A stretch of DNA of 64,000 nucleotides. Origin: Myxococcota bacterium. GTDB lineage: Bacteria; Myxococcota; XYA12-FULL-58-9; JALHOP01. Under the pieces are notes generated by a model, which made no database searches, was not told where the DNA came from, and saw only the letters and a program-made list of their open reading frames with translations. The translations under genes were made by a program, and so were the position numbers. Shown here in pieces: positions 24,127 to 24,414 of this stretch (positions are counted from its first letter, which is position 1; each line of letters starts with the position of its first letter). The stretch is taken from contig JBGGMJ010000092.1 of assembly GCA_041288095.1 (NCBI GenBank), forward strand, positions 57 through 64,056, in the 5' to 3' direction.

Positions 24127-24236
24127 GCCGACCTCCGTCTATATATCGAAGCGTGCGTTCTACGCTTTTCAGCGCTGTTCGCCCGCGGGAAACCTGTACG
24201 CGTGTGCAGGACACACTACACCCAGGTCTTTGGATA

Positions 24237-24263
24237 TTATCGGACAGGAGCAGCGCTGGTTGT
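24237..24263 (-). promoter_or_regulatory. Candidate sigma-28-like promoter of sctI (ACAACC-N15-CGATAA)
   Basis: The minus strand reads TA-ACAACC-AGCGCTGCTCCTGTC-CGATAA-T. The same hexamers with the same spacing recur at 38030-38004. The site lies 111 nt upstream of the sctI ATG. Confidence 0.45.
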
Positions 24264-24414
24264 TATTTTTCCGCGCCATTACGACATGACTCGGTGCGCT
24301 GTATCGACGATAGCCCAATGGTATCGACTACTTGAGGCGCCGCGGCAGGTTTTCTAACGCGAATCGACCGGTGCCGCCGTCGGCGAATTTTCGAGTAAAT
24401 CTCGCGTTTTCGGC

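Follow-up and report, generated by a model that had tools for sequence, protein, structure and literature searches.

Non-flagellar type III secretion systems (T3SSs) are thought to be derived from the flagellum. To our knowledge, the regulators described for them, AraC-type activators and the extracytoplasmic function (ECF) sigma factor HrpL, have no relation to the sigma-28/FlgM circuit of flagella. We analyzed a 64-kb stretch of DNA (64,000 nucleotides of contig JBGGMJ010000092.1; hereafter the window) from an uncultured Myxococcota metagenome-assembled genome (MAG), in which Pfam scans identified genes of a flagellum-like, non-flagellar T3SS. The element in question is a pair of hexamers, ACAACC-N15-CGATAA, upstream of two small genes, one for an SctI-like inner-rod protein (geneA) and one for a possibly needle-like protein (geneB). 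We consider it probable that the two sites are promoters of a sigma-28 (FliA)-derived type, most likely read by a sigma factor encoded in the same cluster, that drive genes for axial subunits.

Two described promoter types are the natural references. In sigma-28 numbering, the -10 element GCCGATAA spans -15 to -8, and the -35 consensus of Pseudomonas aeruginosa sigma-28 is T-36 C-35 T-34 A-33 A-32 A-31 G-30 (PMC12784957). The hrp box, recognized by HrpL, is GGAACC/T-N15/16-[C/T/G]CACNNA (PMC8809351). The corresponding features of the window are as follows.

24233-24272, minus strand: predicted geneA promoter, with an A-rich tract (24272-24264), a -35 element ACAACC (24263-24258; conserved core CAAC at 24262-24259) and a -10 element CGATAA (24242-24237)
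38000-38039, minus strand: predicted geneB promoter, with a T-rich tract (38036-38033), a -35 element ACAACC (38030-38025) and a -10 element CGATAA (38009-38004)
23635-24126, minus strand: geneA, encoding a 163-aa SctI-like inner-rod protein, directly upstream of sctJ
37330-37887, minus strand: geneB, encoding a protein of 185 aa that is Gly/Ala-rich in the middle and has a conserved helix at its C-terminus
35132-36016, minus strand: gene for a FliA/WhiG-like sigma factor, which is proposed to read both promoters

Across both strands of the window (128 kb), ACAACC-N15-CGATAA matches exactly twice, both times on the minus strand (24263-24237 and 38030-38004), and the mean count in 100 dinucleotide-preserving shuffles was 0. 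The original prediction, made from the sequence of the window alone, had named this pair at these positions and had found no third copy with both hexamers; both claims hold. The second is also borne out by a position weight matrix (PWM) trained on orthologous sites that contain the CAAC...CGATA core, for which the only window sites with a score of at least 14 are those of geneA (28.9) and geneB (26.8). CGATAA alone occurs 12 times on the two strands, and CAACC-N15-CGATAA with one mismatch gives two extra matches, both antisense within genes (0.42 expected by chance, all copies counted). Each copy is preceded by TA or TC, as had been stated, and the two genes have similar initiation regions (GGAGGTCGGC-ATG and AGGAGAAGTCGGCG-ATG). 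Distances from CGATAA to the ATG are likewise similar, at 110 nt for geneA and 116 nt for geneB; the earlier figures of 111 and 117 reflect a different counting convention.

Conservation strongly supports reading both sites as promoters. A genome scan with the geneA alignment yielded 36 loci (numbered with the prefix L), all from uncultured Myxococcota or "Deltaproteobacteria" MAGs, and the comparison covers ~20 kb per genome. For footprinting we used a pattern that can be derived from the window alone, CAAC-N16/17-CGATA, and 33 loci from which close relatives had been excluded (1.2 Mb, both strands). The pattern occurs 44 times, and 40 of these occurrences, in the correct orientation, are in the 260-nt regions that precede geneA or geneB, a zone that makes up 1.4% of the sequence (binomial p ~1e-69, a value that overstates independence because the loci share ancestry). 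Counted by gene, the motif precedes geneA in 22 of 33 independent loci and geneB in 18 of 24. The positional bias that the original prediction called for is present on the scale of these loci, rather than of whole genomes. Similarly, of the PWM matches of at least 20 in 1.27 Mb, nearly all precede members of the geneA and geneB families.

MAFFT alignments of whole upstream regions show islands of conservation only at the A/T tract with CAACC, at CGATAA with the following 2-4 nt, and at the Shine-Dalgarno (SD) sequence, and the spacers are fully diverged. The element common to both gene families consists of an A/T tract, (G/A)CAAC(C), a gap of 16/17 nt and (C)CGATAA, and can be followed down to ~40% protein identity. 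The claim of shared hexamers therefore needs narrowing: what is conserved is CAAC together with CGATA(A), and the full ACAACC is specific to close relatives. With that adjustment, footprinting and co-conservation of the sigma gene uphold the central proposal of a shared sigma-28-like promoter before both genes that is linked to the sigma factor of the cluster.

In one sub-clade (L018, L020-L022, L024, L026, L027, L029, L032 and L034; ~9860-9940 in most), a C-terminal extension of the sigma open reading frame (ORF) reads through the geneA promoter, such that CAA-CCn encodes Gln-Pro, CGA-TAA encodes Arg-stop and the -10 element supplies the stop codon of the sigma gene. Coding constraint was nevertheless rejected as the cause of conservation because the same motif is conserved in other clades where it is non-coding.

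Measured against the sigma-28 consensus, the -10 half agrees with the CGA core of GCCGATAA, as CGATAA is exact in both window copies. Among the PWM training sites, an A follows CGATA in 80% and a C precedes it in 73%, and G at -15 is not conserved. The -35 half occupies the same place with other letters: in sigma-28 numbering the window CAAC is at -33 to -30, the register of the P. aeruginosa consensus, and the geneB copy also retains T-36 and C-35. The earlier description of the motif as sigma-28-like is thus apt for the -10 half, and not for the -35 half, whose core is CAAC rather than TAAA despite the shared register. A sigma-70 reading of the sites was rejected, as they lack a TTGACA-like -35 element and the geneB sites lack a T at -7.

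The sigma factor of the cluster offers a counterpart to this pattern. Its best NCBIfam match is FliA_WhiG (TIGR02479) with 163.7 bits, against 87 bits for SigB/F/G, and its best matches in the PDB are FliA structures 9wsm, 1rp3 and 6pmi (from Pseudomonas, Aquifex and E. coli), together with WhiG. In the open complex of P. aeruginosa sigma-28, the -10 element is read by Y76, which stacks on the flipped -11A, R80 (-12G), D87 and R97 (extended -10), and Q228 is a functionally critical reader of the -35 element (PMC12784957). We mapped these residues by a HMMER alignment to chain 9wsm_F, with the offset checked on 12 residues named in that study. The four -10 readers correspond to F128, R132, D139 and R149 in the window factor; across the 32 orthologues with sequence in this region, R132, D139 and R149 never vary, and position 128 is Phe in 31 and Tyr in one.

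The -35 reader differs. Q228 corresponds to R275, so the Gln of region 4.2 is replaced, and the Arg is present in all 33 orthologues; in addition, R225 corresponds to W272. The recognition helix LSKSWTSRLH is invariant, again in 33 of 33. We propose that this altered helix, in which Arg replaces the key Gln, explains CAAC instead of TAAA. The residues fit a sigma factor that would have kept sigma-28 recognition of the -10 element and carries a fixed, different -35 helix, mirroring the combination of CGATAA with CAAC. Synteny points the same way, as almost all loci have the sigma gene between geneB and geneA, and on these grounds we regard it as likely that the factor encoded at 35132-36016 reads both sites.

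Under this model, the FliA/WhiG-like sigma factor would recognize the A/T tract, (G/A)CAAC(C) and (C)CGATAA in the same register as TAAA-N15-GCCGATAA. Transcription would start ~8 nt downstream of CGATAA, near 24229 and 37996, and produce two short, terminator-closed mRNAs with leaders of ~105 nt, one for the SctI-like rod subunit and one for the 185-aa, possibly needle-like subunit. The two genes would form a small dedicated regulon for secreted axial parts, apart from the genes for the basal body and export gate. That they are expressed as a late class, as the original prediction suggested, is speculative and in our judgment doubtful.

Several observations weigh against this model. Where sigma-28 promoters have TAAA(G) 15 nt upstream of GCCGATAA, the element has (G/A)CAAC(C), equal in spacing and register, and only the two central A's coincide. 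The AAC of the CAAC core is also typical of ECF promoters, and GCAACC-N15 is similar to the -35 half of the hrp box, GGAACC-N15/16. The sigma factor falls below the TIGR02479 cutoff of 189.6, which qualifies the earlier claim of a FliA-type factor at 35132-36016: its best family and structures are FliA and WhiG, and the curated threshold is missed. In about one-third of geneA orthologues, the -10 element is degenerate (CGCTAA, CGACAA) or the site is missing altogether, and the shared ancestry of the loci tempers the footprinting statistic. The regulon is delimited within ~20 kb per genome, and further targets or other sigma factors may be encoded outside that span. Finally, orf159, an orphan ORF just upstream of the sigma gene and the candidate for a FlgM counterpart, has no Pfam match in per-member scans and none in a PDB profile search.

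Of the alternatives, the one that survives best, though we consider it unlikely, is that the sites are real promoters read by another alternative sigma factor encoded elsewhere, for example an ECF-type analogue of HrpL, and that the neighboring FliA-like factor has other targets. The -35 core with its ECF-typical AAC is compatible with this, as are the five of six positions shared with the -35 half of the hrp box at the same N15 spacing, the score of the cluster sigma factor below the FliA_WhiG cutoff, and the fact that we infer its link to the promoters. However, CGATAA is a hallmark of sigma-28 and unlike the -10 elements of ECF promoters or the hrp box, so that the -10 half of the latter is entirely unmatched. 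The adjacent sigma factor, which is not of the ECF type, keeps the residues that read exactly this -10 element, and its gene is syntenic with both targets in nearly all loci. No ECF sigma gene was found near the cluster within the window.

Less probable still is that the element is a transcription-factor site, or another signal at the DNA or RNA level, and that transcription comes from a different promoter. The start sites are predicted from promoter geometry, and each gene family has its own bases next to the -10 element, T(A/G)T after it at geneA and GGTAG at geneB. The tract upstream of the -35 element also differs by family, A-rich at geneA promoters (GAAAAAT; window 24264-24272) and T-rich at geneB promoters (ATTTTTT; window 38033-38036), which could reflect extra factors. 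Against this, the element is asymmetric and bipartite, with a fixed gap of 16/17 nt and an unconstrained spacer, and it is placed 40-120 nt upstream of the ATG with the geometry of TAAA-N15-GCCGATAA, a classic sigma architecture. A promoter scan found no sigma-70-like promoter in either intergenic region, and a search of the whole window against Rfam at the gathering threshold gave no matches. A chance resemblance of two unrelated intergenic regions, picked after the fact, can be dismissed: the hexamers were chosen post hoc, and free word choice with many pairs of regions will yield some gapped 6+6 matches, but the element recurs at orthologous positions down to ~40% protein identity while its surroundings are randomized.

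Two loci depart from the common pattern of sigma-28-derived promoters at geneA and geneB. In L005, the geneA orthologue (61% identity, ~5700-5850) has no adjacent sigma, TPR (tetratricopeptide repeat) or geneB gene, and its upstream region keeps a geneB-style -35 element, TTTTTTCAACCGAAG, with no CGATAA. In L032, there is a third strong copy, GCAAC-N-CCGATAAT (12405-12450, minus strand; PWM score 26.7), 5-10 nt before the ATG of a gene for a 271-aa SLT-domain lytic transglycosylase, whose transcript would probably be leaderless. The transglycosylase was rejected as a general third target; the site is only in L032, and no homologue turned up in the other loci.

The natural history of the geneA upstream region provides a further argument. 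In the window, geneA and the sigma gene are separated by a large insertion.

24415-35098: lineage-specific insertion between the sigma gene and geneA, consisting of an efflux operon on the minus strand (outer membrane efflux protein [OEP], two resistance-nodulation-division [RND] proteins and a membrane fusion protein [MFP], in the order OEP-RND-RND-MFP) and a 496-aa ORF on the plus strand

Besides the window itself, only its three nearest relatives, L001-L003, have an OEP homologue as the immediate upstream neighbor of geneA. In most other loci the sigma gene is 13-200 nt upstream of geneA; the distance is ~1.2 kb in L009 and ~2.1 kb in L008, and the sigma gene is absent from L005. Judging from this distribution, the sigma gene and geneA were ancestrally adjacent, with the sigma gene on the upstream side. 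The insertion point is upstream of the geneA promoter, and the 11-kb insertion moved the sigma gene while the promoter stayed with geneA. In this natural experiment the motif kept its place next to geneA, which argues that it belongs to that gene. The 496-aa ORF has no Pfam match.

The predicted transcripts of both genes are bounded by leaders and terminators.

24127-24229, minus strand: predicted geneA 5' untranslated region (UTR), with the transcription start predicted at ~24229, 8 nt past the last A of CGATAA
23569-23613, minus strand: geneA intrinsic terminator, a 12-bp outer stem and an inner 4-bp stem, followed by TTTGTTTTTT
37888-37996, minus strand: predicted geneB 5'UTR, with the transcription start predicted at ~37996 from sigma-28 geometry
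37244-37276, minus strand: geneB intrinsic terminator, a 13-bp stem with a 3-nt loop, followed by T8

The presence of terminators after both genes, part of the original prediction, was confirmed by direct folding against shuffled sequences. The 66-nt stretch that contains the geneA terminator (23560-23625) folds at -29.8 kcal/mol (z = -4.96), with 0 of 200 shuffles as stable, and the 56-nt stretch with the geneB terminator (37235-37290) folds at -25.7 kcal/mol (z = -5.57). Both genes are thus followed by a GC-rich hairpin and a U-run, with z ~ -5 and T6-T8. A simple terminator scan missed both, as a 14-nt inner loop or a bulge exceeded its limits on loop and stem. The strong geneB terminator is kept in all near-clade loci (L004-L011, L019, L031 and L035). 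The geneA terminator (hairpin plus T-run) is found in 16 of 36 loci; it is present in L001-L003 and patchy elsewhere, and because of this patchiness geneA may be co-transcribed with sctJ in some relatives. The description of geneA as a short terminated unit therefore applies to the window but not to every relative.

In the geneA leader, the SD sequence GGAGG is 5 nt before the ATG, and its context, ATAGA(T/C)GGAGGT (window 24127-24150), is conserved across diverged near-clade leaders. This context resembles the CsrA-binding consensus, RUACARGGAUGU, and is a lead only. RNAalifold found no conserved RNA structure in geneA 5'UTRs from 10 loci, in which only the SD context is conserved. A second candidate -10 element, CGATAT at 22 nt before the geneA ATG, was rejected as a conserved promoter: it occurs only in the window and in L001-L003, and without a -35 partner. 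At geneB, the SD sequence AGGAG is 9 nt before the ATG. A segment of ~25 nt, CGAA(T/C)CGA...GATAA-GGGG, is conserved at the predicted start of the geneB transcript in L018, L020, L021, L023, L027, L028, L030, L032 and L034; its window counterpart, CAGCAAAGACGAACGAAAG at 37996-37978, is only partly recognizable.

The identities of the two proteins are supported to different degrees, and the original labels of rod and needle fare accordingly. The geneA protein scores 17 bits against PF17001 (SctI), where the gathering threshold is 32.4, but every one of the 37 family members matches PF17001, each time short of the threshold (best E = 2e-5), and no other family is matched consistently. A small protein encoded immediately upstream of sctJ, as expected of SctI, is found in the window and the nearer clade; in the distant clade geneA is followed by other genes, such as an OmpA-family gene in L032. 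The label "SctI-like" is therefore reasonable, short of formal membership. In the family alignment, the conserved C-terminus ends in ...KATSGIKQTMNTQV, and the geneA profile has no significant match among PDB sequences. The precomputed Pfam label of the family is PF09392 (needle), whereas the direct scan gives PF17001. Several homologues (P0030, P0042, P0056 and P0092) are named "ATP-dependent helicase HrpB" at NCBI, evidently through collision with HrpB as a name of the SctI family, as the proteins are 160-aa T3SS proteins and not helicases.

The needle-like label of geneB is weakly supported. Pfam domains were found in none of its 759 homologues, and among 36 family members scanned, four have faint matches to HrpA_pilin or needle families (PF09392, PF09589; E = 0.19 and 0.0027). 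The C-terminal helix ends in ...KHDTAKNSINNVR. An AF2 model has a pLDDT (predicted local distance difference test) score of 56 and is confident only for a long C-terminal helix at residues 127-184, and the geneB profile has no significant match among PDB sequences. A needle or filament-type subunit is possible and, as an identity for geneB, a guess.

The two targets and the sigma gene belong to a conserved module, which tblastn across the 36 loci orders as orf111, geneB, TPR, orf159, sigma and geneA; in the nearer clade, the module is followed by sctJ through sctN. Two of its genes are located between geneB and the sigma gene.

36129-37155, minus strand: genes for the TPR protein (36739-37155) and the orphan orf159 (36129-36608), placed between geneB and the sigma gene by synteny

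The TPR protein, named for its TPR Pfam matches, is a candidate chaperone, and orf159 a candidate sigma regulator or secreted substrate. A -10-like TATAAC is 8 nt before the TPR ATG (window 37155-37200) with no SD sequence, and most loci have a -10-like TAnnnT hexamer (TATATC, TACGAT, TACATT) 6-9 nt before this ATG, again with no SD sequence. This arrangement suggests that TPR, orf159 and sigma form a separate, leaderless transcript from a housekeeping-type promoter. No PWM match precedes the TPR gene, orf159 or the sigma gene, such as autoregulation of the sigma operon through the motif would require.

Wherever it occurs, orf159 is encoded between the TPR and sigma genes, and its product has a conserved N-terminus, MxRIGGGG(P), followed by ~40 disordered residues and a helical C-terminal domain. 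A search of 5.8 billion proteins returned 176 homologues, none annotated; the AF2 model (pLDDT 58) has no fold match, with a best E of 0.58 in Foldseek against the PDB. Its gene position alone makes orf159 a candidate anti-sigma factor. By extension, one can picture a flagellum-style checkpoint, in which orf159 would hold the sigma factor inactive and be exported by the T3SS once the basal body is complete, freeing the sigma factor to switch on the rod and needle-like genes; we regard this as tentative and rather unlikely. If true, the evolution of regulation between flagellum and injectisome would have a living intermediate in this locus, one whose -35 specificity has been re-tuned (from Gln to Arg, and from TAAA to CAAC).

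A Ser/Thr protein kinase gene is upstream of the orf111-geneB module in the window (39857-41728) and in the distant relative L032 (3287-5800), and the kinase may be part of the regulation of the module. The T3SS genes themselves occupy the other side of the insertion.

2829-5057: SctT/S/R
5385-6638: FliM/N-like SctQ
8612-9457: FliK-like
9982-10476: SctO
16805-18148: SctN
18178-19032: SctL/FliH
21615-22637: FliG-like
22667-23545: SctJ

No genes for SctV, SctU or a secretin were found in the 64-kb window. The T3SS genes are interspersed with genes for a Kup potassium transporter, a GNAT acetyltransferase, an HD-domain protein and a DUF4781 protein (6657-8561, 9467-9985 and 10514-13623), the last with a faint RelA/SpoT match.

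Taken as a whole, the comparison shows a FliA-family sigma factor whose gene is conserved and syntenic within a flagellum-like, non-flagellar T3SS cluster and whose likely regulon, the rod-like and putative needle-like genes, is small and sharply delimited. It suggests that a secretion machine other than the flagellum has taken over part of the flagellar hierarchy of transcription. The invariant change from Gln to Arg alongside TAAA to CAAC would be a natural example of re-tuning -35 recognition with -10 recognition kept. The sigma factor, two promoters and terminators also make a compact parts list, with testable hypotheses, for reconstitution.

Among known systems, the element is closest to the sigma-28 class 3 promoters, TAAA-N15-GCCGATAA, such as that of fliC (PMC12784957). 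It shares with them the -10 core CGATAA, usually with a C before it, and the spacing and register from -36 to -30. The group-3 FliA/WhiG-like sigma factor keeps R80, D87 and R97, with an aromatic Phe for Tyr at position 76, and the putative targets are polymerizing, T3SS-exported subunits in short units with their own promoter and terminator, like flagellin genes. It differs in its -35 element, CAAC instead of TAAA, in the unconserved G of the extended -10 "GC" and in the Arg that replaces Gln, as well as in its setting: a non-flagellar T3SS with a rod-type gene as one target, no FlgM found and a sigma factor below the family cutoff. In enteric flagella, rod genes are not known to be FliA-dependent.

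HrpL and the hrp box are comparable in that a non-flagellar T3SS cluster encodes its own alternative sigma factor, which drives, among others, the gene for the extracellular filament subunit, hrpA, and in the -35 half (GCAACC here, GGAACC there) with N15 spacing. However, HrpL belongs to group 4 (ECF) and the factor here is FliA/WhiG-like, the -10 halves are wholly different, and the HrpL regulon comprises whole T3SS operons and effectors, compared with only two, rarely three, promoters within ~20 kb here. Sigma-28 of Chlamydia (late genes) and WhiG of Streptomyces are FliA-family factors outside a flagellar context, the former in an organism with a T3SS and the latter in one with no flagellum at all. 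Neither is known to be encoded within a T3SS cluster, and the WhiG regulators (RsiG with cyclic di-GMP) have no counterpart here. We know of no report that either factor drives rod or needle genes.

By host and gene content, the T3SS resembles the early-branching "Myxo" non-flagellar system of Myxococcales (Abby and Rocha 2012; PMC3459982): the host belongs to the Myxococcota, FliG-, FliM/N-, FliK- and FliH-like parts are present and the window has no secretin. The relatives here are uncultured MAGs and not isolates of Cystobacterineae. The account of the evolution of Myxococcales T3SSs in that study mentions no sigma factor (PMC3459982), and the literature we searched, the coverage of which is incomplete so that this is absence of evidence only, has no description of such a sigma circuit for Myxococcota T3SSs. 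To judge by its sequence, the element acts like both a sigma-28 class 3 promoter and the HrpL/hrp-box arrangement and is a canonical member of neither, because its -35 half departs from that of sigma-28, its sigma factor is below the FliA/WhiG cutoff and the -10 half of the hrp box is absent. What appears to be new is the combination: a FliA-derived sigma factor and a promoter pair with a re-tuned -35 element, located in a non-flagellar T3SS cluster and apparently dedicated to genes for axial subunits.

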